IMG/VR virus record: IMGVR_UViG_3300042691_029887
Location: 10,845-74,844 of that record
Length of the DNA: 64,000 nt
Direction: 5' to 3' (one strand)
Source: a virus
Taxonomy: Duplodnaviria > Heunggongvirae > Uroviricota > Caudoviricetes
Part shown: positions 10,432-63,789 of the stretch, in pieces
Numbering within the stretch: position 1 is the first letter of the stretch
Layout: every line of letters starts with the position of its first letter
Notes under the pieces: model-generated
What the model was told of the DNA's origin: nothing
What the model saw: the letters and a program-made list of their open reading frames with translations, nothing else
The model's database searches: none
Program-made: the position numbers and the translations under genes

Positions 10432-10850
10432 AGTGCAACTTCTTCTCGAGCGTGAGCATCGCAGGCAGTGTAGATCCAGCTACGACCTCTCCTGGTACCA
10501 GGAGCACCGCATTCTTCACAAGTGACAGCACTCATTGATTCAGCCATACGTATCATACCATCGATTCGATCATCACCGCCGTTGGTGTAAAATCTCAGTG
10601 TGCCAAACTTTTCTTTGATCTGCACAGCCACAACCTGTGAACAGCCTTCGCCTCGTCCATACTTTTCTTTCTGTTCCTGCGCCCAATCTATATGATGTTG
10701 TATGTTGGCACAGAGTTGGTTGATAATATTATACCAACCATCCCCGCACTCAAAGCCCCAACACATTAACGTTTCTTTTGGATCACCGTGACGATTAACA
10801 AAAATCTTGGGATAACGTTGGCACAACAGGTCGTCTAGTTCTGGTTTCAT
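10428..10850 (-). CDS. hypothetical Cys-rich protein
   Basis: 140 aa; CWGFECGDGW and CEECGAPG Cys motifs, possibly metal-binding. Confidence 0.5.
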   Translation of the reverse strand: MKPELDDLLCQRYPKIFVNRHGDPKETLMCWGFECGDGWYNIINQLCANIQHHIDWAQEQKEKYGRGEGCSQVVAVQIKEKFGTLRFYTNGGDDRIDGMIRMAESMSAVTCEECGAPGTRRGRSWIYTACDAHAREEVAL

Positions 10851-11050
10851 TCCTCAACTCCAAAATTGTCTTTAATCTTATCGATACAATCATCAGCACC
10901 TGCAAGGTCAACTTCATCACAAAGTCGGATACATTCTTTAACAATCAACTCGGCGAACTTTTCTGGGTCAAACCCTATCAACTTCATTGCGGCTTTGTTA
11001 ATTTCATCGTAGCCAGCGACTTTGGCTAGGGTCTTAATTCGTTCGTTCAT
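10847..11050 (-). CDS. small protein, MNERI...FGVEE family member 3
   Basis: 67 aa; MNERIKTLAK..FAELIVKEC..NFGVEE. Confidence 0.55.
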   Translation of the reverse strand: MNERIKTLAKVAGYDEINKAAMKLIGFDPEKFAELIVKECIRLCDEVDLAGADDCIDKIKDNFGVEE

Positions 11051-11304
11051 TCTTCAACTCCGAAATGTTCTTTCATACGCTGATTAATAGTGTGAGCAGT
11101 ATGCACTGGTTCTATCGCATAGTTATTCATCTTGCCAACCCAAGTAGAACACGCCATACATTCCCTAACAATCAACTCGGCGAACTTTGTATCATATGAT
11201 GCTGAATACACTTTCAATGCTTGTTCTTTGTCTGTGATTTTAATCATAGCATCAAGAGCATACTTTTTAGCCTGTTCAGCAAGTTCTCGAATTCGTTGGT
11301 TCAT
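11047..11304 (-). CDS. small protein, MNERI...FGVEE family member 4
   Basis: Start placed at MNQRIRELAEQ (ATGA overlap with the upstream gene); FAELIVREC...HFGVEE. Confidence 0.5.
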   Translation of the reverse strand: MNQRIRELAEQAKKYALDAMIKITDKEQALKVYSASYDTKFAELIVRECMACSTWVGKMNNYAIEPVHTAHTINQRMKEHFGVEE

Positions 11305-16730: not shown

Positions 16731-16822
16731 TGGTACCTCGGGCGGGAGTCGAACCCACATTGGCCAATTATCTGTTGCACACGGGATATAAATCCGCTGT
16801 TTTACCGTTAAACTACCGAGGT
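16731..16822 (-). tRNA. tRNA-like gene, ~92 nt, long variable region, anticodon uncertain (loop TTTATAT, possibly Ile-UAU type); unusual A1-U72 start
   Basis: Perfect 7-bp acceptor ACCTCGG/CCGAGGT + ACCA; D-arm GTTT-AACGGTA-AAAC; T-arm GTGGG-TTCGACT-CCCGC; the anticodon stem has a mismatch and there is a 22-nt variable segment. Confidence 0.55.
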
Positions 16823-29261: not shown

Positions 29262-31148
29262 TTATTCAGGCTTAGTTGCATCCTTAAATTCAGCCTCTAC
29301 AACATCACTCTGTTCTTTAGACTGATTTGTTTCAGAATTCATCTTGGCCTGTATCAAAGCTGAACTTGATTCTAAAAGTTCAGTCAGTGATTTGTTGATG
29401 GTTTCAACATCATCAAGTTTGACTTTTTCTTCTAAGTCTTTGATAGCATCTTCGATCTTAGTTTTTTCATCTACTGTGATCTTGTCACCATGTTCAGAAA
29501 GTTCTTTTTTAACAGTATGTAATTGACCTTCTGCGTTATTTCTAATATCAATAAGTTCTCGCTGTTTCTTATCTGATTCAGCATTTTCTTCTGCTTCACG
29601 AATCATATTTTGAATTTCAGCATCACTTAATCCACTATTTGCTTTAATAGTAATTTTATTTTCCTTGTTAGTCTTTTTATCTTTAGCACTAACACTTAAA
29701 ATACCGTTGGCATCAATGTCAAACGTAACCTCAATTTGAGGCATGCCACGTGGTGCTGGATCAATACCTTCTAGATTAAATTCACCTAGTATTTTGTTGT
29801 ATCGGAATAGTTCTCTTTCACCTTGACCAACTTTGATAGTAACAGCAGGTTGATTGTCGTCAGCGGTTGAAAACACCTGACTTGCTTTAGTTGGTATAGT
29901 TGTGTTTTTCTGAATCAACTTTGTAAAAACACCACCCATTGTTTCAATGCCCAAGCTCAATGGAGTAACATCCAATAATAGAACATCTTTACGATCACCG
30001 CCTAGAACAGCTCCTTGAACTGCTGCGCCAGCTGCCACTGCTTCATCCGGATTAACATCTTTACGTGGAGCCTTACCAAACAGTTTTTCAACTGCTTCTT
30101 GTACTTTAGGCATACGAGTTTGACCACCAACCAAGATAACTTCATCAATGTCATTAGCACTCACACCAGCATCTTTCATTGCGATCTTACAAGGTTCAAT
30201 AGAACGCTGGATAAGATCATCAACTAATGATTCTAGTTTTGATCTAGTTATTTTAATATTTAGATGTTTTGGTCCACTGGCATCTGCTGTGATGTATGGT
30301 AGATTAACTTCTGTTTGATTACTATTTGATAATTCAATTTTTGCTTTTTCAGCAGAATCTTTTAGCCTTTGTAGAGCTAATTGATCATTTTTTAGATCGA
30401 CTCCGTTTTCTTTCTTAAATTCATCAACCAAGTAATCCATAATACGTTGGTCAAAGTCTTCACCACCTAGGAATGTATCACCATTAGTGCTTAGAACTTC
30501 AATTTGTTTATCGCCATCTACATTAGCGATTTCAATAATACTTACATCAAATGTACCACCACCAAGGTCGTAAACAGCCACTTTGCGATCAGCTTTATCA
30601 TTTTTATCAACACCATAAGCAAGAGCTGCCGCAGTAGGCTCGTTAATAATACGGAGTACTTCTAGTCCTGCAATCTTACCTGCATCCTTAGTTGCTTGGC
30701 GCTGGCTGTCATTAAAGTACGCAGGAACAGTAATAACTGCTTGAGTAACTGTTGTCCCAAGATAGTCTTCGGCAGTTTTCTTCATCTTGCGAAGAACTTC
30801 TGCACTAATCTGAGGTGGGGCTAAATCTTTGTCATTAGCCTTAATCCAAGCATCACCATTAGATGCTTCCATAATTTGATATGGCATTAGATTAATGTCT
30901 TTTTGTACAGCATCTTCTTTGAACTTTCGTCCAATCAAACGCTTGGATGCATAAATCGTATTTTTAGGGTTAGTAACTGCTTGACGCTTTGCTGAGGCTC
31001 CAACTAGGACTTCGTCATTAGCGTAGGCAACAATACTGGGAGTAGTCCTAGCACCCTCGCTGTTTTCAATAATTTTAGGAATTCCGTTTTCGACGATAGC
31101 CACGCATGAATTGGTGGTGCCGAGGTCAATACCGATGATCTTTGACAT
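29262..31148 (-). CDS. dnaK: molecular chaperone DnaK (Hsp70)
   Basis: Start at [14 protein letters not shown]; Hsp70 signatures [27 protein letters not shown]; 628 aa. Confidence 0.97.
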
Positions 31149-31178
31149 ACATATCTCCTTATAAAGTAAGATCAATTT

Positions 31179-37647: not shown

Positions 37648-37884
37648 TCAATAATTTTTTGGGGGTAATTTGTTCTTTTCGAGCTTTTTAAGCCAACGTG
37701 CCCTTGCGGCACCAGCAGCTCTTTTGCGTCTTTCGCTGGGCTTTACATAGAACTGCTTTTCCATCAAATCTTGTAAAGTACCGTTCTCTTCGACTTTCTT
37801 TTTGAATTTTCGTAATGCTTTATTAAAATCTCCATCAACGTAAACAGTTGATCCTTGCAATTTATTCTCTTTAAATTTTGCCAT
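37648..37884 (-). CDS. rpsU: 30S ribosomal protein S21 (bS21) homolog
   Basis: Basic ~78 aa; [22 protein letters not shown]...[19 protein letters not shown] collinear with bS21; start may alternatively be 37911. Confidence 0.72.
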
Positions 37885-39091
37885 ATTCTTTCTTTTTATT
37901 GTCAAAGACAAATATTGGTAATCCTTGTTTGTTAACTGATTCTTTATTTACCAAAATCTTCTTTAAACCCTTTTTGGATAAATCCTGTGCTTCAAATTGA
38001 TAAGGTATTAATAGTTTTTCTATGGTAGTTCTCAAACCTCGAGCATTTGTTTTTGATACTATGCTAGATTCTACTATCTCTATCAACGCATCATCTTCAA
38101 ATTCTAGTTCGATACCATCTAATTCAAATAAAAATTTATATTGTGATATCAAGTTGTTTCTAGGCTCTATTAGTATTCTTACTAGGTCTTCTTTTTTAAG
38201 TTCTTCTACTGACGTTAGTATATTAAATCTGCCTACAAATTCCGGAATAAGTCCAAATTTAATTAAATCTTTTTGAGTTACTTTAGAGTAAATTTCATCG
38301 GAAGATGACAGCCCTCCTAAGTCACTATTAAATCCTATTGACGTAGGATTCAATCTCTGCCTAATAATGTTTTCTATTCCTATAAAACTACCACCAACAA
38401 TGAACAATATATTTTTGGTATCTACTTCGACTTCTTCTTTCTTCTTACCAAAAATCAAATTAACTATGGTTCCTTCGATCATCTTTAATAAAGACTGCTG
38501 TACACCTTCTCCACCAACATCTTTAACATTTGTATTGATATCACCTTTTTTACTAATCTTGTCTATTTCATCTATATAAATGATTCCGCGACTAGTAGCT
38601 TCAATGTCACCTTCAGCTCTTATCAAAAGTTGTTGGATAATATTTTCTACATCATCACCTACGTAACCTGCCTCAGTCAATGCTGTAGCATCGCAGTGTG
38701 CAAAAGGCACATCAATATATTCTGCAATTTTTTTGATCATTAATGTTTTCCCACATCCAGTAGGACCAATAATCATTACATTACTTTTATCTAAATCAAC
38801 ATAACTGGTTAAAGAAGTAATGCGTTTATAGTGTTGACTTACTCCAACTGACAATGCTATTTTTGCCTCATCTTGACCTATAACAAACTCATCAAGATAT
38901 TCTTTTATTTTAACAGGATTGAATTTTGATATGTCCTGCTCTTTAATTTTTCCGTTTTGCTCTTTTAAAATTTTATCACAGAGCTCCACACATTCATTAC
39001 AAATGGCGCCATTTTGTCCTACGACCATTTTTTCGACATCTTCTTTGCTCTTTCCGCAGAAATCACAGTTTTTAGTTTTCATCGTGCTCAA
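37871..39091 (-). CDS. clpX: ATP-dependent Clp protease ATP-binding subunit ClpX
   Basis: 406 aa; N-terminal C4 zinc finger CDFCGK...CNEC; Walker A GPTGCGKT; LIDEIDK; sensor/arginine-finger region. Confidence 0.93.
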
Positions 39092-47443: not shown

Positions 47444-47901
47444 ATCGAATACTTTATAAAATAGTCAAAGATGAAATTGTTTCTTTCGACAGATATATCT
47501 CAGGGCAATTACTAGCTCTGGATAGAAGTGTCCTATCTGGCTTTATATCTTGGAACGCTAAAGAGAAATTTTCCTACACAGACTGGGTACAAAAAATAAA
47601 TTCTTTTACTGTAGTAAAAGTAGAAGGATTGGAAGATAATAAAAACATTTGTAAATATTTTAGAAAATTTAAAATCAAAGATATACATTTGTTTAATAGC
47701 ATCAAAACTGACTATAGTTTTGGATGGCATCACGATACTGTAAACGTTTACTTGTATGTCCTAAAAGGAAAGAAACGTGTTAGTATAAAAAATAAAACAG
47801 TTGTGTTAAATGCCGGACAAGGAATCCTTATTCCAAAAGGGAATAAACATCGTGTGTTTAACTACAAAAATACATGGGCTTTGAGTATTGGGTTAAAATG
47901 A
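47434..47901 (+). CDS. cupin / JmjC-like Fe(II) oxygenase-fold protein
   Basis: 155 aa; HxD...H arrangement (GWHHDTVNVYLYVLKG ... NKHRV). Confidence 0.45.
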   Translation: MEMNRILYKIVKDEIVSFDRYISGQLLALDRSVLSGFISWNAKEKFSYTDWVQKINSFTVVKVEGLEDNKNICKYFRKFKIKDIHLFNSIKTDYSFGWHHDTVNVYLYVLKGKKRVSIKNKTVVLNAGQGILIPKGNKHRVFNYKNTWALSIGLK

Positions 47902-48950
47902 AAGAATTAATGATTTATCTCAAAACTACAGAAACTTGTAATTTGAACTGCAAGCATTGTTTTACCAATGGAACCAATGGAGCAAAGATATATTGGGATC
48001 ACATTAAAGTAACAAAATGGTTACAGGAATTTAGCAAAATCACTAATAATTCATCACATGTACATTTAGAATTTCATGGCGGTGAACCCTTCCTAGCAGA
48101 TATAAAATCTTTGCAATATGTATATGATAATTGTTTTGATCTTTGGGCAAGTCAGAGCTGGGGGATCACTACAAATTTAGTTTTCAAACTAGATCAAGAA
48201 AAAATAGATTTTATACAAGGGCCTTTAGGAAATAGAATTGGCACTAGTTGGGATCCTGATATTAGATTTTCTAATCCAAAGCAGTATGATCTTTGGAGGA
48301 AAAATATTGATACATTAATTTCTTTAGGGGTTGATATCAAATTGTTTATTAGTGTTACCAAAGGCACAGTTAACATGGAACCTATCGACTTACTAGAATG
48401 GGTCAGAGATTTAGGAATTAAAGAGTTAGCTCTGGAAAGACTTACTATGAATGGCTCTGCTCTAGAGAATCTAGATATCTTTCCGACTAATTTAGAACAA
48501 GATCAGTGGTTCTTAAAAATGCATCATCAAATTTTAGAAAATGATGCAAGAGATTGGTTTTCTAATGAATTTATGGAGACAATTTATTCCAAGTTTGAGC
48601 AAGGAATAACTTCAGAAGGCACGTTCTGTAGAGATTGCGAAGAAAAATTATTCACTATCAATGCGGATGGATCTATTGCTGGTTGTCCTAATAGTGCTCC
48701 TGAGGATAAGTACGCACATATTGATGACAATATTCAAGATATTTTTATCAATGAAAAGCGACTTCACATTATGGCCTGTGAAAAATCAAGGGATCCCAGG
48801 TGCTACGAATGTCCAGTTTTTGAATACTGTGGTGGAGATTGTCACCAACTAGAATGGCAAGATAATATCTGTGGAGCCCCCAAAAGTCTAATGACATTGC
48901 TCAGCGGAAAAAATAAATATATCAAAGTGATTAATTTAAAGGAAATTTAA
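47898..48950 (+). CDS. radical SAM enzyme with C-terminal SPASM/twitch-like Cys cluster (rSAM-1)
   Basis: CNLNCKHC (Cx3Cx2C) near the N-terminus; C-terminal CRDCEEK...CPNS...CEKSRDPRCYECPVFEYCGGDC. Confidence 0.75.
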   Translation: MKELMIYLKTTETCNLNCKHCFTNGTNGAKIYWDHIKVTKWLQEFSKITNNSSHVHLEFHGGEPFLADIKSLQYVYDNCFDLWASQSWGITTNLVFKLDQEKIDFIQGPLGNRIGTSWDPDIRFSNPKQYDLWRKNIDTLISLGVDIKLFISVTKGTVNMEPIDLLEWVRDLGIKELALERLTMNGSALENLDIFPTNLEQDQWFLKMHHQILENDARDWFSNEFMETIYSKFEQGITSEGTFCRDCEEKLFTINADGSIAGCPNSAPEDKYAHIDDNIQDIFINEKRLHIMACEKSRDPRCYECPVFEYCGGDCHQLEWQDNICGAPKSLMTLLSGKNKYIKVINLKEI

Positions 48951-54217: not shown

Positions 54218-54965
54218 AAATTGATAGAACCTTTCCCTCTAAAAATTGATTGTAAAACCAATTGATTTTTTCTATTCCTAAATTATTAATGTATTGCATA
54301 TTTTCCATTTTTTCATAATAAAAATTTAATGTTAGTCTAGATTGATGATCAGAATGAAAACTGTGCCAAGTTATACCTGGCTGACTGCACATTATAAATG
54401 CTCTATTAGGCTTCCATTCGACTTCTTTTACGAACGAATTATAATTTTCTTCAGTATAAAGCCTAGTTCCAATAGTTTTTTCAGGAGAAAGATACATAAC
54501 CATGGCTATGGTTTTGTTATTGCCTTCATCATGTATTGTCCCATCAACATTTGGACCAATGAAATTATATCTAGGAATACTAAAATATCCTATTTTACTA
54601 TTCATGGCATTTTGATATCTAGCCAAAACTTTGTTATGATTTTGTAAAAATTGTAAATTCAAATCCATAATTAAATTTATAGTGTCATTAGGAACACCAT
54701 ATTTGGCAGCATCGTGCATCCATATACCATTGGGATCACGTGGCTCTTGAGCGGCTGCTTCTGCTAAAATTTTTCCTCCTTCTAATATTTTATCATAAGA
54801 TTCTTTGGTTAAAATATTATCAACTAACTGATATTGCCAGGGGTTAGTAATGATAGGGGATTCTAATATGTTTTCTATATTAAGCATTGAATTTTTTTTT
54901 GGGCTTAGAAAATTATTTATGATAAATTTTAAGATAAATATGCTGTTAATGGATATTATATACAA
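54204..54965 (-). CDS. 2OG-Fe(II) oxygenase-like protein, paralog 3 of 3
   Basis: 253 aa; IHDEGNNKTIAMVMYLSPEKTIGTRLY...WKPNRAFIMCSQPGITWHSF. Confidence 0.45.
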   Translation of the reverse strand: MYIISINSIFILKFIINNFLSPKKNSMLNIENILESPIITNPWQYQLVDNILTKESYDKILEGGKILAEAAAQEPRDPNGIWMHDAAKYGVPNDTINLIMDLNLQFLQNHNKVLARYQNAMNSKIGYFSIPRYNFIGPNVDGTIHDEGNNKTIAMVMYLSPEKTIGTRLYTEENYNSFVKEVEWKPNRAFIMCSQPGITWHSFHSDHQSRLTLNFYYEKMENMQYINNLGIEKINWFYNQFLEGKVLSIYDDR

Positions 54966-56029
54966 TGAAAGATGAAGAGTTATACAATGTATTGATAGGC
55001 AATCAAAAACAAAATGAACAAGGTGAACTCATTGTAATTCTTTTTGAATTTTGTAATTTATCTTGTCAAGCCTGTTATCAAGACCACAGTAGTATGGCAG
55101 GGGTTGATAGCGTCCAAGAAAAATTTGATATTATTGCTCACGCATTAGATGTATTAAAAGGTAGGGGAAAAACTTCTGTAGCAGTAAACATTATGGGCGG
55201 CGAGCTCTTTGCGGACGAACTACCTGATACTATTTTCGATGATTATACTATCTTAGTGAATAGATTACGTGATTATAGTGAAAAAATAAATCTTCCTTCA
55301 AAATTTTCAGTTCCATCTAATATGATATGGACTAAAAAAGATAGAGTTAAAAAATTCTTGAATGATGCAATGGTAAGGTTAAACGCCAGTTATGATCCAG
55401 CTGGACGTTTTAATCCTAAAACTTTATCTATGTTTATCGATAATGTTAAAGAATTTAAACCTTACATCAATCAAATCGGTATAGTAATGACGAGGCCGAG
55501 TATTAAAAAGTTCATGAATTATTCTGCTAATCATTTTGATTTTTTATACGAAAATTTTGAAATAAATTTTGATCATTATACGCACAGTCAAAGAGCTAGT
55601 GTTGACCCAGAATTATTAATGCCTAAAGATACAGAACTTAGAGATTTTTACAAATTTATGATTGACCATTATCCTAATTGTTATCCATTTTGTGAAACAA
55701 TGGACAGCGGATCTCAACCAATGTTCTGTATGAGAACAATGTATGTCTTTCCTGACTCTACTTTTGGTTCGTGTGGAAGTGTTGAAAAATTAATTAATCC
55801 TTTATCAAAAATAGAAGATAAAAAAGTCATTCGTATAATCAATACCACTGACAGTCCCTTAGAAAAAACTATCGAAGCAAAATGGTATAAAGAATATGAT
55901 TGTTTAAATTGTGATCATCTTCAAAGATGCTCTATGAGTTGTTTTTTAAATAATCATTTTTATAATACTAGAACACAGGAAGAATGTTGGCTCAAAGAAG
56001 TTTATCAATATGTTGACAGTAAAAAATGA
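54965..56029 (+). CDS. radical SAM enzyme (rSAM-2)
   Basis: 354 aa; CNLSCQAC Cx3Cx2C motif; additional C-terminal Cys (CLNCDHLQRCSMSC). Confidence 0.7.
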   Translation: MKDEELYNVLIGNQKQNEQGELIVILFEFCNLSCQACYQDHSSMAGVDSVQEKFDIIAHALDVLKGRGKTSVAVNIMGGELFADELPDTIFDDYTILVNRLRDYSEKINLPSKFSVPSNMIWTKKDRVKKFLNDAMVRLNASYDPAGRFNPKTLSMFIDNVKEFKPYINQIGIVMTRPSIKKFMNYSANHFDFLYENFEINFDHYTHSQRASVDPELLMPKDTELRDFYKFMIDHYPNCYPFCETMDSGSQPMFCMRTMYVFPDSTFGSCGSVEKLINPLSKIEDKKVIRIINTTDSPLEKTIEAKWYKEYDCLNCDHLQRCSMSCFLNNHFYNTRTQEECWLKEVYQYVDSKK

Positions 56030-57645
56030 TAAAAATAGCGTTTATAAATCCGCCTCACGCTGATTGGATAACACCAAATTTAGCCACTTGGTTTTATATG
56101 AAGAGTCATTACGATAGAGTTGGCAAATATAAAAATCAAGTTCAATGGTTAACTCCTCCTTATCGATATAATCAGTATCAGAGTACTGAAGAAATATATG
56201 AGGAAATAAAAGAAGCTGATATTATAATTTTTAGTTCTTATTTTTGGAATTACGATATCTGTGATGAGATCGCAGCATTAGTAAAAACTAAAGATAAAGA
56301 TAAAATAAATTTAATAGGCGGACCGCATATTGGAATAATTGATGGATCATTTGATAAAAGAAAACATCTTTATGATTATTATTGTCAGCCAACTAAACCA
56401 GGTGAAGTGTTTATAGAAGATTTTATAAATTTGTTTATAGAATCTAAATCAAAACCAGATCCAGAATTAGTATCCTGGGAAATAAGATGTGTTTCTGGAA
56501 GAAAGCATGATTTTTCAGGCATTGCTATATACGAAGAAAATTTTAATATCCTAAAAGAAATATGTGATTATGCAAATCAATATGATTTAGAAAAATTTTC
56601 AGTAATAGAAACGACAAGAGGATGTCCATATCAGTGTACTTTCTGCGAGTGGGGTGGCGGGATAGGCACGAAGGTAATAAAACAAGAATTAGAAATAGTT
56701 AAACGAGACTTATTGGCTTTAAAAAAAGCAGGATATAAAAATGTTTTTTTAACTGATGCTAACTTTGGAATGTTTGAGGATAGAGATTTAGAAATTTTTA
56801 AATTTGCTTGGGAAAACGATATAAAACTAACTGACCTTAGCACAGTGAAAGTAAAAAATTTAGAAAGAAGAATAAGACTTATTGATGCTTGTTTTGAAAT
56901 CATGGGCAAAAATAAATCAGAATCTGGATACCCTACTCTAAGTATACAGACTTCAAGCGACGAAGCTATAAAGATCGCCAAACGAACCGACTTATCGTTT
57001 GATGATAAAATCAAATTATCAGAGCATATTTTTAAAAGATTTAAAGAAGGATATATTACTACTCCTACATTAGAATTAATTATGGGAATGCCTGGTTCCA
57101 CAATAGATGATTTTTATAAAGAATTTGATATGTTGTATAATTTTCAATCTTGGAATAGTTATAGACATGACTATATGTTTTTGCCTGATGCAGAAATAAG
57201 TCGCCCGGAATATTTAAAAAAGTACGGTATAGAACTTGTAGAAGTTTATAGTGATTTAATAGATGAAGATTCAGTTGATAACTTTAACAGTTTTTATGGT
57301 AAAAGAAAAAGTTATTTTAAAACAATCTCACAATGTTTTTCTTTCACTAATGACGAGATATGTGAGATGTTTTTTATGAATCAAGCAGGAAATTGGATTT
57401 TAAAAGAAGTGTATTATTCAGGTTTTGAAAGTCTATTTTCTCCTTCAGAATTTACAAAAAAAAGTTATCAAATATTAAAAAAGTTAGACGGCTTCTCAGA
57501 AATATACAGCGACATAAAAGAAATTTACAACGTAGATAGTGAACCAAAAAATATTAAAAGAATTTTAAATGGAAAACGAAATGAAGTTATAGTAAATTTT
57601 TTAAAAAATAATAAAATATTTTTAACGAATGAAATGTTTAGATAA
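56026..57645 (+). CDS. B12-binding-domain radical SAM enzyme (class B-like; rSAM-3)
   Basis: 539 aa; N-terminal Rossmann-like cobalamin-binding region; TTRGCPYQCTFCEWG radical-SAM core. Confidence 0.7.
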   Translation: MIKIAFINPPHADWITPNLATWFYMKSHYDRVGKYKNQVQWLTPPYRYNQYQSTEEIYEEIKEADIIIFSSYFWNYDICDEIAALVKTKDKDKINLIGGPHIGIIDGSFDKRKHLYDYYCQPTKPGEVFIEDFINLFIESKSKPDPELVSWEIRCVSGRKHDFSGIAIYEENFNILKEICDYANQYDLEKFSVIETTRGCPYQCTFCEWGGGIGTKVIKQELEIVKRDLLALKKAGYKNVFLTDANFGMFEDRDLEIFKFAWENDIKLTDLSTVKVKNLERRIRLIDACFEIMGKNKSESGYPTLSIQTSSDEAIKIAKRTDLSFDDKIKLSEHIFKRFKEGYITTPTLELIMGMPGSTIDDFYKEFDMLYNFQSWNSYRHDYMFLPDAEISRPEYLKKYGIELVEVYSDLIDEDSVDNFNSFYGKRKSYFKTISQCFSFTNDEICEMFFMNQAGNWILKEVYYSGFESLFSPSEFTKKSYQILKKLDGFSEIYSDIKEIYNVDSEPKNIKRILNGKRNEVIVNFLKNNKIFLTNEMFR

Positions 57646-58715
57646 TGGAACTAATAATTAAGCCTACTGAGCTCTGTAATTTTAAATGTACATTTTGTTC
57701 AAGTACATATATCACTGAGGAAAAATCTAAAACATTAGATTTAGAATATATTTTTAAATTTCTAAAAAGATTTCCTGAAACAAACTCTATTATTGTAAAT
57801 GGCGGTGATCCCTTAATGGTTCCAACAGAATATTATTGGGAAATAATTAAGCACTTAGATGAAAATAATTTACCAGCTAATTTAAGTTTCACTAGCAATC
57901 TTTGGCCGTTCTATAAAAATCCAGATAAATGGACAGAGTTGTTTAATCATCCTAGGATGGGAGTCACTACAAGTTTTCAATACGGTGGCGGAAGATTAAA
58001 AGGTGATCTTACTGAATTTAGTGAAGAAGATTTTTGGGCTGTCAGTAATATGATGTTAGATAAAGTAGGATACCGACCAGACTTTATTGCAGTTATCACG
58101 GAAGAAAATGAACATTTAGCTATCAACAACGTAGAGCTTGCTAAACGTATGGGTGTTGAATGTAAACTCAATTATGCATTTAGTAGCGGTCCGCCTATTA
58201 AATTTAAAAATATTACCATGGGACAGGAAGGGCGTCCATATATGTTGGCCAAGATATACGAAATATATGTTCGTATCTGGGAACTGGGACTTGCTGAATG
58301 GGAATACAACACCAAACAAATGATTGGAAGATTAAAAAATAAAAGTACCACATGTCCGCAAAATAGAAAATGTGACGAAGGAATTAGAACTCTTCAACCC
58401 AGTGGAGATTATTATAGTTGCGGAGCATTTGGAGATGACAGAGTTTATTCTATCAATTTTCAAGAAGAGATGTCAGGTAAAAAAATATTTCCCATTCGAT
58501 ATCAACCAGAGTTACAAAGTTTAAAACAAAGTTGTTATACTTGTCCTATGTTTGAAATTTGCAATGGTTGTCGTAAAACTATTAAGGATCTCAAAGATCA
58601 TAATATGGTAGAAACACATTGTTTTAAAATGAAACAATTAGCTCCTAAAATTATAGAAGCCAATGGACTCAATAAAATATTAACTCCCACTGAGTACGTT
58701 CGAGAATATGCATGA
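57645..58715 (+). CDS. radical SAM enzyme with SPASM-like C-terminal Cys cluster (rSAM-4)
   Basis: 356 aa; CNFKCTFC; C-terminal CPQNRKCDEG...CGAFGDD...CYTCPMFEICNGC. Confidence 0.72.
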   Translation: MELIIKPTELCNFKCTFCSSTYITEEKSKTLDLEYIFKFLKRFPETNSIIVNGGDPLMVPTEYYWEIIKHLDENNLPANLSFTSNLWPFYKNPDKWTELFNHPRMGVTTSFQYGGGRLKGDLTEFSEEDFWAVSNMMLDKVGYRPDFIAVITEENEHLAINNVELAKRMGVECKLNYAFSSGPPIKFKNITMGQEGRPYMLAKIYEIYVRIWELGLAEWEYNTKQMIGRLKNKSTTCPQNRKCDEGIRTLQPSGDYYSCGAFGDDRVYSINFQEEMSGKKIFPIRYQPELQSLKQSCYTCPMFEICNGCRKTIKDLKDHNMVETHCFKMKQLAPKIIEANGLNKILTPTEYVREYA

Positions 58716-59620
58716 TAGTTTCTATTAATCCAACCTACTACTGCAATTTTAGATGTGATTTTTGTTATCTAACAGAACAACAACTAAGTGACCGAACATT
58801 ATTACCGTTAACTGTTTTAGAATCACGAATTAAGGAAATACAAGAAATTGATGAAATACAAATGATAGATTTGTATGGAGGTGAAGTAGGATTACTTCCA
58901 GAAACATATGTCAATGAACTTTGTTCTTTATTAAAGAATAATGGAATAGATGATATTAACATCATAACTAATTTGAGTATGGTAAATCAAGTTATAAGAA
59001 ACCCAGACTTTTATCTTACTGTAAGTTATGACTTTGATTGTAGGGAACAGAGTGAGCGTGTTTGGACTAACATGGCATTGTTAGATAGAGAATTTTCGAT
59101 ATTAATTTTAGCCAGTGATTGTTTGATTAAGAAAGATATTGATTTAATGATTAATCAATTAAATTTGTTAGGAAATCTTCAATCTGTAGAAATAAAACCA
59201 TATAGTACTAATCAAGCTAATTGTCATAATGTAAGTAATCTAGATTTTGAAAATTTTGTTAAAGGCTGGATACAGAGTACTATTAAGAAAAAATTTGAGT
59301 TTGTAAATGAAACCAATATTAATAAAACGTTAAATTATAAAAGAAATGCCTTTAGTAATGACCATGTTTATATAACCCCAAGCGGTGAATTTGCTGTACT
59401 GGAATTTGATCTTAACGACAATGAATATTTTAAATTAGTTAATTCTTATAAAGAATATAAAGACTGGGCAGATAATGAACCGTTAAAAAATGTTAGCAAT
59501 GTCTGCAAGTCTTGTACTTATTATGGTAGATGCTTGACAGAGCATTACAGATATGTTAAAAATTTAGATTACAGTTGTAATGGATTTAAAGGATTGATAG
59601 ATTGGTATGCAACTAGATAA
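58712..59620 (+). CDS. radical SAM enzyme (rSAM-5)
   Basis: 302 aa; CNFRCDFC; C-terminal CKSCTYYGRC. Confidence 0.68.
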   Translation: MIVSINPTYYCNFRCDFCYLTEQQLSDRTLLPLTVLESRIKEIQEIDEIQMIDLYGGEVGLLPETYVNELCSLLKNNGIDDINIITNLSMVNQVIRNPDFYLTVSYDFDCREQSERVWTNMALLDREFSILILASDCLIKKDIDLMINQLNLLGNLQSVEIKPYSTNQANCHNVSNLDFENFVKGWIQSTIKKKFEFVNETNINKTLNYKRNAFSNDHVYITPSGEFAVLEFDLNDNEYFKLVNSYKEYKDWADNEPLKNVSNVCKSCTYYGRCLTEHYRYVKNLDYSCNGFKGLIDWYATR

Positions 59621-60023
59621 CTTTTTCATTGATGGATATGTTTTATTAGAAGAATCAAATCTTCATGAAAAAACAGATATGCTTCAGTATCTTGAAGAAA
59701 AATACCTATCAATATTATTTCCAAAATGGAAATTAATAGGGTGTGAATACTCTGAATCAGTACTACCTGAAGACAGAATTACCTTTTGGCATAACGATTC
59801 TAAATTTGGTATGAATGTAACATTTTTATATTACATTGACGAAATGTCGCCAGAAGTAGGCGGATCAATATCTATTAGAAATGGATTCGATGAAATAAAA
59901 ATATATCCTAAATCTGGAACATTAATTTTGATGAGTCAAAAACCAAATATGCAACACAAGGCAGAATATTGCTCAATTCTTAGAAGAATGTATAATATAG
60001 ATTATTATATAGACGGTTACTAA
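59607..60023 (+). CDS. 2OG-Fe(II) oxygenase / cupin-like protein
   Basis: 138 aa; HxD (WHNDSK) and distal His in a beta-rich core. Confidence 0.4.
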   Translation: MQLDNFFIDGYVLLEESNLHEKTDMLQYLEEKYLSILFPKWKLIGCEYSESVLPEDRITFWHNDSKFGMNVTFLYYIDEMSPEVGGSISIRNGFDEIKIYPKSGTLILMSQKPNMQHKAEYCSILRRMYNIDYYIDGY

Positions 60024-60026
60024 AAT

Positions 60027-60431
60027 ATGAAAGAATATAAGATACGTCAGGAGATATATCATAGATTAAACAAGATCTATGATGATGACTTAAAAAATTT
60101 CCAAATAGAAATAACTGAAGACGTTGTCAAGGATGCTGTTAGGTATTTTACAACTAGAGATATAGGTTGGATTTATCCGGCAAAAAGTTATATGGTAGCA
60201 ATATGTTATGCTAAATGGCTATCTGAAGAATTTGGCGGTAGACCATTAGAATACTTAGATGATCCTGGATTACTCTATCATAACGATGATTACTTTAAAC
60301 ACTATAGCAGCGATCCAAAAACCTATGTAAAAATTTTAGAAAGTATAGGTGGGTGGAATTTTGATGAAAGCATGGGTCTTGTTCCTGATGTTAAAAAATA
60401 TTTTCTACTGGAATTTGGTGTCGAAGAATGA
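60027..60431 (+). CDS. hypothetical protein ending in the FGVEE junction motif
   Basis: 134 aa; C-terminus LEFGVEE* overlapping the next start ATGAAT, the same junction as in the 9.8-11.5 kb small-gene array. Confidence 0.45.
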   Translation: MKEYKIRQEIYHRLNKIYDDDLKNFQIEITEDVVKDAVRYFTTRDIGWIYPAKSYMVAICYAKWLSEEFGGRPLEYLDDPGLLYHNDDYFKHYSSDPKTYVKILESIGGWNFDESMGLVPDVKKYFLLEFGVEE

Positions 60432-61012
60432 ATTATGGATTAAATCATTGTTGGGCCACTGCTGTTAGGCTATCTAAAATAAAGAACACATCACTTTTAG
60501 AAGATCTTACTCAGGAAATATTAACCAGTTCTTACATGAAAAATCCGCCTAGCGATTTCCAAGAATTTGATATTTTAAAAGAAACCAGCAATATTTCTAG
60601 ACAATTTTTAAAAGACGAAGTAACCCTAGCTTTTCAAGAATACTTAAATGAAGTATTGGGAGTTGATTTAAAACAGTATCATGGATATGAATTGAGATCT
60701 TGGTTAGCCGGAACTGGAAATGGATACATGATACCAACACATAATCATAGCGGTGCTTCTCTTAGCGCAGTATTTTACTTACTTACAGATGATACTGGTA
60801 AAGGCGGTGAACTTGAGTTGATTGATCCAAGATCCAATGCTAATCGAGGTTATGACAGAAACTTTAAAAAACTTTTTGAAAAGCAAGTATTGACACCCAA
60901 AACTGGAGATGTTATAGTTTTTCCAAGTTTTGTGTATCACTACACTCTACCCTTTACTGGAAGCATAAGATTAGCAATACCTGTGGATCTGTTGCTTGAA
61001 TGTAAAGATTAG
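60428..61012 (+). CDS. 2OG-Fe(II) oxygenase family protein
   Basis: 194 aa; MIPTHNHSGASLSAVFYL...GGELELIDPR...GDVIVFPSFVYHYTLP typical of the small cyanophage-type 2OG-Fe(II) oxygenases. Confidence 0.55.
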   Translation: MNYGLNHCWATAVRLSKIKNTSLLEDLTQEILTSSYMKNPPSDFQEFDILKETSNISRQFLKDEVTLAFQEYLNEVLGVDLKQYHGYELRSWLAGTGNGYMIPTHNHSGASLSAVFYLLTDDTGKGGELELIDPRSNANRGYDRNFKKLFEKQVLTPKTGDVIVFPSFVYHYTLPFTGSIRLAIPVDLLLECKD

Positions 61013-61597: not shown

Positions 61598-61833
61598 TCT
61601 CAAAGTGTTATAGGAAACGAGGTCCTGGCTCTGCACTTAAAACATGGAGCGAACGGGCGGCCTACCGGATGGCTTATCCTTGTGTGGATAAAAAAATGGT
61701 AGCGTATTAAAGTGTATTAGCCACAGCCGAGAAACATAGATTTCGGGTTGCGTAGCAATATGTCGCTAGTGTACTTTAATACACACTCTCTGGTCACCCT
61801 TGACACGCATAGCGTGAGAGTGTTACAAATTAT

Positions 61834-61908
61834 TACTCGGTGGTGTTAACGGCAGCATGACGGTCTCCAAAACCGCTGGTGGGGGTTCGAATCCCTCCCG
61901 GGTAGCCA
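61834..61908 (+). tRNA. tRNA-Trp(CCA), CCA encoded
   Basis: Acceptor TACTCGG/CCGGGTA (one G-U); anticodon arm CGGT-CTCCAAA-ACCG; T-arm GGGGG-TTCGAAT-CCCTC; ends GCCA. Confidence 0.75.
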
Positions 61909-61928
61909 AAAATAATGTGTCAAAACTA

Positions 61929-61957
61929 TTGACAACAAAAAAATTTTAGTACATAAT
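61929..61957 (+). promoter_or_regulatory. sigma70-type promoter TTGACA-N17-CATAAT directed into the ORF-free structured region
   Basis: -35 at 61929-61934, 17-nt spacer, -10 at 61952-61957. Confidence 0.55.
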
Positions 61958-62440
61958 AGATGAATAGGGCAGTTTATTGTCCTGCAGGCGGCTTGCCGTT
62001 TGCGAAGAATAACTGTGGTGACACAGCCAAAGCTAGAATGCCTACATACTAGCGCCAGCAATGGTTCACGTAAACAAGCCTGCTCACTGTGGCGACACAG
62101 CGTTCACTGATAAGACCGGTGGATGTAATAGCAAAGCTGATGTATGGGAAAGAACATTGTTCGACGTGCCGCAAGGAACACGGGGCAATGAAAAGTAACA
62201 GGTGGTGCTGACTTCCATGCGAAACCAATCAGTCAGTTAGTATGAGAAAGGGTAGTGTATTGGTTCAAGGGGTCGCACCTAAGAGCTCGTATGCAATGTT
62301 AATGGTAAGTGGGTCCGGTAGAAATACCTGGGTACACATATCGTGAAACATCACTGAGTAGCTCGCGAGGCAAAAGGTATGTGGTGAGTTGTATTCGGCA
62401 GTCCAAAAGATTGTTGAGCAACAGAGGCAGCTCATCGCGG

Positions 62441-62513
62441 TAGGTTGATATAGGCTAATGGTAGGCCAATTCCCTGTTAAGGAATAGACTGTTGGTTCGA
62501 CTCCAACTATCTT
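62441..62513 (+). tRNA. tRNA-Asn(GTT)-like element without encoded CCA and with an imperfect acceptor and D region
   Basis: Perfect anticodon arm ATTCC-CTGTTAA-GGAAT; T-arm GTTGG-TTCGACT-CCAAC; D-loop TAATGGTAG; the acceptor pairs only with mismatches. Confidence 0.4.
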
Positions 62514-63123
62514 ACAAAAATGCAAAGACTGCCTCGGTCATGTGTGAAAAGCATCTAACACTCAAGTCGAAAGATAATTGAGTTTAGTGAAGCTCGCAAG
62601 GCAACACTAATTTGTGGTTGGGGGTTCGTAATTGGTTAGCACCAATGAATAGCTCGCAAGGTTAACGGAATGGATACCACAGAGTAACACATGATGTCAA
62701 GACTACTGCATGTCTTTAAACTGCGATGCTGGCAACAGACTAGGATACAGGTAACTGGTCTTAGTGGATGTCTAGAGAACGTATACTCGCAAGGTGTACG
62801 GTAATGCTAGAGGTGTTGCTGGCTAACGTGTAATCTCAGCGTTAGCACTATTCTAAAACACATTACTAAGAGTCCAGGTTCAGAGCGTGGCATAGTGTGT
62901 TTCAGAATAGAAGACCCTCTGTTACACTTTTCAGGAAGAAAGTGCGCCATTACCAAGCGATAGAAGGTACGGTGCTTTGGATCTACCGCAAGGTTCTCTT
63001 TAGGAACGACTTGAGAAATCACAAAGGCGGGGACGTTTCCCGTCTAGATGGAAAAGAACGTGGACAGAGCAACAGCTCAGTTTAGGGCTAGTGAGGACTA
63101 GTAGCTAGACACTTTATAAAAGC

Positions 63124-63236
63124 TCTTTGAAGTTTAACTACACTGGATAACACTAGTAGGTACTAAGTCGACTAACTACCGAAAGTGCTAGGAAGATACG
63201 GAGTTAAACAGTTTGGTTCGATTCCAACAGAGAGCC
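63124..63236 (+). ncRNA. ~112-nt tRNA-like structure (acceptor GCTCTTT/AGAGAGC plus T-arm TTTGG-TTCGATT-CCAAC) with ~40 extra internal nucleotides; no CCA
   Basis: 7-bp acceptor pairing across 105 nt, canonical T-loop, internal GTAG...CTAC and AGTCGACT palindromes; could be an intron- or insert-bearing tRNA or a tRNA-like RNA. Confidence 0.35.
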
Positions 63237-63251
63237 TCTATAAAGTTTCAT

Positions 63252-63341
63252 GGGCGGGCGGCGAAGATGGTGAGTGTCGCGGCGGACTGTAAATCCGTTA
63301 CTTAGGAACCGTAGGGGGTTCGAATCCCTCCCCTCCCACCA
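63252..63341 (+). tRNA. tRNA-Tyr(GTA), type II, CCA encoded
   Basis: D-arm GCGA...TCGC; anticodon arm GCGGA-CTGTAAA-TCCGT; 15-nt variable arm; T-arm GGGGG-TTCGAAT-CCCTC; 3' CCCTCCC-A-CCA. Confidence 0.8.
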
Positions 63342-63348
63342 AATTTAT

Positions 63349-63423
63349 GCACGGTTCGTCTATCGGTTAGGACACTGCCCTTTCACGGCAGGAAGAGGGG
63401 TTCGATTCCCCTACCGTGTACCA
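63349..63423 (+). tRNA. tRNA-Glu(TTC), CCA encoded
   Basis: Acceptor GCACGGT/ACCGTGT; anticodon arm CTGCC-CTTTCAC-GGCAG; T-arm AGGGG-TTCGATT-CCCCT. Confidence 0.85.
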
Positions 63424-63429
63424 GTTACT

Positions 63430-63504
63430 GGTCTCAAAGTGTTCATGGACGCACATATGCCTGTCACGCATAAAGAAGGGGATCGTTACCCCTTGAGACC
63501 GCCA
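63430..63504 (+). tRNA. tRNA-Asp(GTC), CCA encoded
   Basis: Acceptor GGTCTCA/TGAGACC + G + CCA; anticodon arm TATGC-CTGTCAC-GCATA; atypical T-loop ATCGTTA. Confidence 0.8.
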
Positions 63505-63546
63505 ATATTTTAAATCACAGTTTAAGTACGTGATAAGTAGATTTAC

Positions 63547-63620
63547 GCCCTTTTAGTTTAATGGTAAAACAACGGTTTTGTAATCCGTGGCTGGCAGTTC
63601 GATTCTGTCAAGGGGCACCA
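63547..63620 (+). tRNA. tRNA-Thr(TGT), CCA encoded
   Basis: Acceptor GCCCTTT/AAGGGGC; D-arm GTTT-AATGGTA-AAAC; anticodon loop TTTGTAA; T-arm GGCAG-TTCGATT-CTGTC. Confidence 0.78.
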
Positions 63621-63626
63621 AACATT

Positions 63627-63705
63627 CCGGGTGTAGCTTAGTCTGGCTTAAAGCGCCTGCTTTGGGAGCAGGAGATCGTGAGTTCGAATCCCACTTCCCG
63701 GACCA
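63627..63705 (+). tRNA. tRNA-Pro(TGG), CCA encoded
   Basis: Anticodon arm CCTGC-TTTGGGA-GCAGG (G37); T-arm GTGAG-TTCGAAT-CCCAC; the acceptor has two non-WC pairs. Confidence 0.7.
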
Positions 63706-63712
63706 TTTTTAT

Positions 63713-63789
63713 GCCTCAATAGCTCATTTGGTTAGAGCACCGTCTTGATAAGGCGGGGGTGCCTAGTTCGAATCTAGGTTGAGGCACCA
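63713..63789 (+). tRNA. tRNA-Ile(GAT), CCA encoded
   Basis: Acceptor GCCTCAA/TTGAGGC; D-arm GCTC...GAGC; anticodon arm CCGTC-TTGATAA-GGCGG; T-arm CTAGT-TCGAATC-TAGG. Confidence 0.85.

Follow-up and report, generated by a model that had tools for sequence, protein, structure and literature searches.

A GOLLD RNA and two further conserved structured RNA modules in the tRNA island of an uncultured phage

Introduction

Phage tRNA islands, namely clusters of transfer RNA (tRNA) genes, are the usual setting of GOLLD RNA, a known family whose reference description is reportedly that of Weinberg et al. 2009. One such setting is considered here, a region of about 1.3 kb at 61964-63250 of a 64,000-nucleotide (nt) stretch of DNA from a virus of the Caudoviricetes (IMG/VR record IMGVR_UViG_3300042691_029887, positions 10,845 to 74,844), the whole of which is called the window in what follows. 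A first-pass annotation had described this region as promoter-driven, free of open reading frames (ORFs) and packed with small hairpins, and had proposed several kinds of structured RNA for it. About 70% of the region (~61965-62910) is GOLLD RNA. In addition, the last 330 nt, which that annotation had not foreseen, are made up of two more conserved RNA modules with no Rfam match, a multi-helix RNA (module M) and a tRNA-like RNA (module T). The best explanation of the whole, in which we have high confidence, is that GOLLD, M, T and the tRNAs constitute one non-coding unit within a phage tRNA island.

GOLLD structures from env-38 and S. agalactiae have been solved by cryo-electron microscopy (PMC12286853, PMC12990946). 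In particular, GOLLD needs no protein to assemble itself into a closed cage, made up of 10 to 14 copies, in which the linker J13/15 is disordered and faces inward (PMC12286853), and it is in this linker that embedded tRNAs are found (PMC12990946). The RNA of the window is similar to these in its match to the full 3′ model above threshold, in its two domains and length of ~950 nt, in the variable linker holding a tRNA, in its location within a tRNA island and in its richness in GNRA tetraloops. It differs in that the lineage of its 5′ domain is known here from metagenomic viral contigs alone, and in having an extra 3′-terminal hairpin and an embedded tRNA with a degenerate acceptor stem.

For M and T, the closest analogy would be the T4 rnaC and rnaD RNAs (species 1 and 2), which are, like M and T, small RNAs of a phage tRNA cluster, known in T4 to be stable. 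The annotation and sequence of rnaC place a T-arm-like hairpin at its end. A homology of these RNAs with T was considered and rejected, as the covariance model of T (R1, described below) has no match on the T4 locus and no sequence similarity is found. To our knowledge, stable RNAs other than tRNAs have been known in phage tRNA clusters since T4 and their function is still unexplained. The tRNA-like domain of transfer-messenger RNA (tmRNA) and YrlA (RF02553) are similar to T in another respect, that is, an acceptor and a T arm are combined with a long helix that substitutes for the anticodon and D arms; T differs from both in having neither coding segment nor pseudoknots, in its length of 117 nt and in the lack of any ARAGORN or Rfam match at its position. 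Finally, in L9.3 of OLE, in L21a of GOLLD and in the dimerization initiation site (DIS) of HIV-1, a loop word shifts between palindromes, as it does in T; compared with these kissing-loop systems, T is known here from sequence alone, as a 117-nt tRNA-like RNA.

The GOLLD RNA

A scan of the window against all 4227 Rfam families gave a single match other than tRNAs, which is to GOLLD (RF02032) at 62381-62842 on the + strand and covers positions 1-416 of the 416 of the model with 201.4 bits (E 2.4e-55; gathering score, 150). This model spans the conserved 3′ domain only, and the 5′ domain (61965-62380, + strand) was delimited by alignment with 16 homologous loci. Specifically, an upstream pattern, GCCTACATACTASCRC, was used to retrieve close relatives from viral contigs and colinearity was then tested with nhmmer; 61965-62910 of the window is colinear with the 16 other loci, and both domains are shared. 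This 5′-domain pattern performed far better than a 14-mer from the GOLLD 3′ end, with which 120 loci were retrieved, mostly by chance and only 4 of them GOLLD. The relatives, designated below by L numbers, come from IMG/VR as viral contigs whose length reaches 519 kb, and each of them has its GOLLD in a tRNA island, with 6-28 tRNAs in the locus sequence examined. Membership of the GOLLD family is thus established for every feature that a sequence allows to be tested. The first-pass proposal of a large structured non-coding RNA is borne out by this match together with the covariation described below. On the other hand, since Infernal assigns 62381-62842 to GOLLD and homology extends over ~61965-62910, the main body of the region is not novel.

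Covariation was counted in a 17-sequence alignment, and the following numbers take in related sequences. The RNAalifold prediction comprises 99 pairs in the 5′ domain, 77 of them with compensatory changes, and 126 in the 3′ domain, 92 compensatory, with 61 non-canonical cells out of 2122; for the two domains together, 169 of the 225 predicted pairs show compensatory changes. Just 2 predicted pairs bridge the 5′ and 3′ domains, which fits the two separately folded domains described for GOLLD (PMC12286853).

The hairpins that had drawn attention to the region in the first place are conserved GOLLD helices with GNRA caps. The hairpin CTGTGGYGACACAG, reported twice, is indeed found at 62013 and 62087 (hairpins 62013-62026 and 62087-62100 of the 5′ domain), with 0 occurrences expected, and in relatives CUGUGG-UGA-CACAG is replaced by GUGUAGCGAUACAC, GUGAGGUGACUCAC and others. 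The GGTA-GAAA-TACC hairpin is likewise present, as GGTAGAAATACC at 62318-62329; a lineage-variable hairpin with a GAAA loop occupies 62311-62335 of the 5′ domain. The 11-mer said to occur five times is a real repeat whose number was slightly overstated, as the word GCTCGCRAGG has three exact copies and one with a single mismatch in the region: GCTCGCAAGG at 62592 and 62652, GCTCGCGAGG at 62361 and ACTCGCAAGG at 62785. Looser CCGCAAGG copies can be read at 62169 and 62986, and the whole window holds 6 matches to the word, with 1.2 expected. The positions 62592, 62652 and 62785 are those of the GCUCGCAAGG-type hairpins of the 3′ domain. The composition of the region had also been described correctly, since its G+C content of 0.43-0.48 is higher than that of the 3.5 kb upstream (0.25-0.38).

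Downstream of the stretch covered by the Rfam model, the GOLLD of this clade ends in a specific 3′-terminal hairpin, CACUAUUCUAAAACACAUU ... UAGUGUGUUUCAGAAUAG (62846-62910, + strand). It is kept in L125, L124, L136, L131 and others, and in L124 a compensatory change turns CACA/UGUG into CAUA/UAUG. Several relatives have a T-run 3′ of this hairpin; the window has none.

The first of the two tRNA-like elements seen in the first-pass annotation is a tRNA-Asn(GUU)-like insert at 62445-62515 (+ strand), called by ARAGORN and by the Rfam tRNA model. It lies in the GOLLD linker J13/15, where the GOLLD model has no pairs, in the interval from its first hairpin to the AAAGCAAAGACUG block. All the relatives examined have a tRNA at the same linker site, with the anticodons GUU, UUU, UCU, UUG or, in L031, CUA. 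By analogy with the other members of the family, the GOLLD of the window would be expected to form cages and, if it assembles like its relatives, the tRNA-like insert would sit inside the cage. The main body adds to the family a well-populated lineage of freshwater phages, some of its members with their own promoter and all of them with an insert, either a tRNA or a tRNA-like element, in the inward-facing linker. Such an addition is not a surprise, and the lineage is useful for testing the published idea of an embedded tRNA stored inside the cage.

As a separate observation, the linker tRNA of L031 (6491-6565) and a second tRNA of the same locus (2835-2913) both have a CUA anticodon, the linker tRNA being labelled Pyl by ARAGORN; this may point to a phage in which the amber stop codon is read.

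Two conserved modules downstream of GOLLD

Module M (62916-63110, + strand; boundaries approximate) is a conserved multi-helix structured RNA of ~195 nt, without an Rfam family. Among the loci retrieved with nhmmer and pattern scans it has 23 distinct copies, many of which begin right after the 3′ end of a tRNA. Alternative runs predict either 31 pairs, 16 of them compensatory, or 40 pairs, 24 of them compensatory.

Module T (63122-63238, + strand), the second tRNA-like element of the first-pass annotation, is a conserved structured RNA. Its acceptor stem of 8 bp is formed by GCUCUUUG with CAGAGAGC (63122-29 with 63228-35) and its T arm has a 4-bp stem (63213-16 with 63224-27) closed by the canonical loop UUCGAUU, so that the T-arm stem stacked on the acceptor gives the usual 12 bp. 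The 3′ end is ACC in many copies and CUC in the window. The D and anticodon arms are replaced by one long arm, which in the window ends in a 14-nt apical loop (63163-63176). Around the module, a leader/trailer helix of 7 bp pairs CUUUAUA (63112-18) with UAUAAAG (63239-45), and elsewhere it covaries to CCAUAUA with UAUAUGG. T is also found in a second setting, a tRNA slot, where it directly follows the 3′ end of a tRNA (...CCA) and precedes the next one.

The structure of T, drawn by hand in an alignment of 24 distinct sequences (A6), is paired in 97.2% of cells and 15 of its 31 pairs show compensatory changes; none of 500 shuffles equals the real value, and controls in which the structure was slid along the alignment reach at most 48% of paired cells. 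In addition, T contains G-U pairs that are compatible with the + strand only. R1 recognizes a single copy of T in the window, with 138 bits, and 69 further matches in 67 metagenome loci; its E-values are rough because the calibration was shortened, and the corresponding alignment, A7, is fitted to the structure of the model.

No family for M or T emerged from Rfam (15) at E<=10 on 62900-63260. The matches obtained there (MIR2629, DUF3800-XI, snR69, PVT1 and an internal ribosome entry site, with 6-15 bits) were discarded as chance. Similarly, scans of four M- and T-carrying relatives at the Rfam gathering thresholds returned GOLLD, tRNAs (one of them scored as tRNA-Sec) and a tmRNA located elsewhere in L213, and nothing at M or T. 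Full-text searches of the literature found no description of M, of T or of a third element, named ‘up’ and described below. M and T are thus possibly undescribed families. In a catalogue of 2023 (PMC10690425), IMG/VR yielded 8,495 candidates for structured RNAs, and M, T and ‘up’ may be listed there without a name.

The arrangement of the two modules could also be taken to mean that one giant RNA spans all of the 1.3 kb, with M and T as extra 3′ domains of GOLLD. M does begin just 5 nt past the GOLLD terminal hairpin and T 11 nt past M, in a terminator-free stretch, and T lies 3′ of GOLLD on the same strand in 5 of the ~17 GOLLD loci of the clade, the interval being as short as 16 nt in L146 (1702-1718) and between 0.3 and 2.5 kb in L167 (4809-5146), L125 (6161-7415) and L172. 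However, M and T are present in many loci whose examined sequence contains no GOLLD, M is found without T in L213, L198, L144 and L227, and T stands alone in tRNA slots. Moreover, in L125 the interval between GOLLD and T hosts two protein genes, one of 190 amino acids and one of 224 that looks membrane-protein-like, and in close GOLLD relatives the 3′ domain is immediately followed by a terminator or a tRNA. Specifically, L004 has a classical terminator directly 3′ of the GOLLD end GUGUAAUCUCAGCG, and L031 a weaker terminator-like hairpin. A single giant RNA is therefore unlikely.

The apical loop and the nature of module T

The apical loop of T, 13-16 nt long, contains a palindrome, which in the window is AGUCGACU at 63166-63173. 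Among 56 distinct T sequences the word is AGUCGACU in 40, GUCGAC in 6, UUCUGCAGAA in 3, UUCUAGAA in 2 and ACCGGU in 2, and the other 3 include 2 incomplete rows without the loop. Random 14-nt loops have a palindrome of 6, 8 or 10 nt in 14%, 2.9% and 0.5% of trials, respectively, and the predicted energies of the loop-loop duplexes range from -8.6 to -14.5 kcal/mol. Since the word varies and yet stays palindromic, and neighbouring loop bases cannot pair within one molecule, pairing between two copies is the reading to which the loop points. The same argument from a varying palindrome has been applied to intermolecular pairing in L9.3 of OLE and L21a of GOLLD (PMC12286853). In other words, T probably forms a symmetric kissing-loop homodimer, in which two molecules would be joined loop to loop. 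This model predicts that T becomes a monomer when the loop word AGUCGACU is changed into AGUCCACU.

GTCGAC, CTGCAG, TCTAGA and ACCGGT are typical 6-bp palindromic recognition sites of proteins. The words in the T loop resemble such sites, and they, and perhaps other blocks, could act at the level of DNA, being bound, for example, by a nuclease or by a DNA-binding protein that forms dimers. What disfavours a DNA-protein site is that the word changes while its self-complementarity and its position at the tip of a hairpin stay the same; in addition, the G-U pairs of T show that selection acts on a single strand of RNA. The one occurrence of AGTCGACT in the window does not exceed chance. We regard a role in DNA as distinctly unlikely.

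It could also be argued that T belongs to a known class, as a genuine tRNA of aberrant form, the pseudogene of a tRNA or a tmRNA in miniature. Its acceptor stem, its T arm and loop of canonical type, the 3′ ACC of many copies and the tRNA position that it takes in some loci speak for this, and its order of acceptor, long helix and T arm is that of the tmRNA tRNA-like domain. Nevertheless, ARAGORN in default, intron, relaxed and tmRNA modes on 61600-63350 does not call T and adds nothing else. T lacks the D arm and the 7-nt anticodon loop of a cloverleaf, and RF00005 does not match it at E<=10. As for tmRNA, neither T nor M and T together gives a call with ARAGORN -m or a match to a tmRNA family at E<=10, and instead of the G3-U70 pair the position 3-70 is U-A in all copies. 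YrlA (RF02553) does not match T either, its sole match being below threshold (21.7 bits against 69) and located on the ordinary tRNAs at 63650-63768. A pseudogene is unlikely because the long arm is kept with compensatory changes in at least 56 distinct sequences. In our reading the loop UAAGUC-GAC-UAA is similar to a resume codon context, with a resume codon GAC followed by UAA, and this tmRNA-like interpretation was dropped because the alternative loops keep the palindrome and not the frame. An origin of T as one of these known classes thus appears very unlikely.

Transcription and processing of the non-coding unit

A sigma-70-type promoter, TTGACA-N17-CATAAT, had been reported at 61929-61957 (+ strand), and the site is there, with 11 of 12 positions matching the consensus. 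It ends ~7 nt before the conserved 5′ end UAGGGCAG, with a predicted transcription start at ~61964-61966. The number of promoter-like sites in the region (6, against 5.4 expected from shuffles) shows no excess, and it is the conserved position in relatives that makes the call credible: L124 has TTGACA-N16-TATAAT, and L004 and L031 have TTGACA-N17-TATAnT, at an equal distance from UAGGGCAG. The flanks are also as first described, with a tRNA-Trp(CCA) at 61834-61908 (+ strand), just 5′ of the promoter, and an array of six tRNAs at 63253-63789 (+ strand; Tyr-GUA, Glu-UUC, Asp-GUC, Thr-UGU, Pro-UGG and Ile-GAU), both identified by ARAGORN and Rfam.

No terminator-like site was found on the + strand between 61957 and 63790. 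As no terminator separates the parts, a single polycistronic non-coding precursor would extend from ~61965 through the six tRNAs. Among the options raised at first, that of a polycistronic precursor with unusual tRNA-like elements is accordingly rated the most likely. Following initiation at the sigma-70-type promoter, the first ~950 nt of the RNA would be GOLLD, with its 5′ domain, 3′ domain and terminal hairpin, and transcription would then run on through M and T into the six tRNA genes. The precursor would finally be cut by RNase P and by tRNA 3′-end enzymes, either RNase Z or exonucleases.

Several points weigh against this account of the locus. The transcript, its ends and its processing are all deduced from sequence alone. 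Some relatives have their GOLLD directly after a tRNA and without a promoter of its own, so that the promoter is not a fixed feature of the family. M and T are found with no GOLLD nearby, and most GOLLD relatives have no M or T in the locus sequences examined. As regards the embedded tRNA, its acceptor stem has just 4 Watson-Crick pairs, with two U-U mismatches at acceptor positions 1-2, a U-C mismatch at position 7 and a discriminator A, and its Rfam tRNA match is restricted to model positions 4-67; L004, L121 and L136 have an equally truncated match, and other relatives have full acceptor stems. With so few acceptor pairs and a match limited to 4-67, the insert may not mature as a normal tRNA, and it may be decaying or purely structural. 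The leader/trailer helix encloses the acceptor end of T in the window and in many relatives, which argues against a simple maturation of the tRNA-like end there. Lastly, the T sequences are related to each other, so that the changes of the palindrome represent perhaps four or five independent events, and the palindrome could act as a site at the DNA level.

It is most improbable that small proteins are encoded in the region, or that it corresponds to a group I/II intron or to a different ribozyme or riboswitch of a known kind: the ORFs are short, as the first-pass annotation had recognized (the largest within 61964-63250 being of 86 amino acids on the - strand, 62265-62525, and of 62 on the + strand, 62897-63085), the indels among homologues are not multiples of three, compensatory changes are paired, and the scan of all 4227 families gives GOLLD and tRNA only, with no support for the intron and riboregulator options of that annotation and, together with ARAGORN in tmRNA mode, none in the region for RNase P RNA, tmRNA, 6S RNA or signal recognition particle RNA.

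Possible significance of M and T

The more useful result is that what was supposed to be a spacer contains two conserved structured RNAs without a curated family. As a joint and tentative proposal, which is quite possible but which we would not yet expect to hold in all its parts, T, M and ‘up’ are undescribed families of the tRNA islands of large freshwater phages, and T is a dimerizing mimic of tRNA. If this were true, T would keep the acceptor/T-arm end that tRNA-processing enzymes see, and the dimer would be rod-shaped, both of its tips being tRNA-like ends. T might then be a decoy or an adaptor, its targets being enzymes or defence nucleases that act on the ends of tRNAs. Alongside GOLLD, such a dimer would point to the tRNA islands of phages as a reservoir of RNAs that assemble by themselves. 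T provides a simple and testable prediction, namely dimerization through a covarying palindromic loop, which bears on the role of the stable RNAs of phage tRNA clusters and on how common RNA-only assemblies are.

Phage context and further elements

The window comes from a large AT-rich uncultured phage, probably of fresh water. Among the INPHARED phages, blastn of 61600-63300 gave matches to the tRNA-Trp only, and neither megablast of 40000-61500 nor tblastn of an 842-amino-acid ORF gave any match, so that no cultured relative was found there. Exact patterns for T and ‘up’ were absent from 185,579 species genomes, and no prophage or host was found in this way. The AT-rich window codes for Hsp70, ClpX, UvdE, several radical S-adenosylmethionine (SAM) enzymes and 2-oxoglutarate (2OG)-Fe(II) oxygenases, and several of its proteins match PHROGs families. 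One protein is also found in Joint Genome Institute (JGI) sample 3300008110, from which the viral contig of 214 kb that holds the closest related GOLLD was also obtained.

In more detail, the Hsp70/DnaK is full-length (29262-31175, - strand; E 2e-260) and the ClpX-like AAA+ protein has a zinc finger (37871-39091, - strand). The radical SAM proteins form a run of 354, 539, 356 and 302 amino acids (54965-61012, + strand), with one of 358 amino acids further upstream (47874-48950, + strand); small ORFs and a 2OG-Fe(II) oxygenase follow this run, directly upstream of the RNA island. The run may be a modification or biosynthesis cluster. Elsewhere in the window, a tRNA-Ile(UAU) adjoining a tRNA-Leu(UAA) at 16731-16822 (- strand) is 92 nt long, which is much for class I, and may carry an insertion. 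Among the relatives, L213 (a 356-kb viral contig) has at 10754-11172 (- strand) a permuted tmRNA of betaproteobacterial type, with 126 bits for RF01850 and 136 bits for RF04321, which hints weakly at Betaproteobacteria as the hosts of these phages.

A third conserved structured element, ‘up’, is located just 5′ of the tRNA-Trp, at 61600-61830 (+ strand). Rfam gave no match to it in the window or in four relatives. It consists, in this order, of the blocks AGUGU...GGAAACGAGGUCC...GCACU and GGGCGGCCUACCGGAUG...AUGGUAGCGUAUUAAAG, a long covarying hairpin and ACACACUCU...GAGAGUGU; viral contigs hold 50 distinct copies of it, and compensatory changes affect 19 of its 25 predicted pairs. Its 3′ end holds a TTGACA...TACAAT-like promoter, usually placed before a tRNA or, in L124, before GOLLD. 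The apical part of the 3′-terminal GOLLD hairpin of L124 and L136 (GCCACAGCC...GCAUAGCA...UGUCG) resembles the long hairpin of ‘up’ (nhmmer E 7e-4). The resemblance extends over 4065-4135 of L124 and 61708-61779 of the window, whose own GOLLD has a different sequence in place of this apical part, and it suggests a hairpin module common to the 3′ end of GOLLD and to ‘up’.

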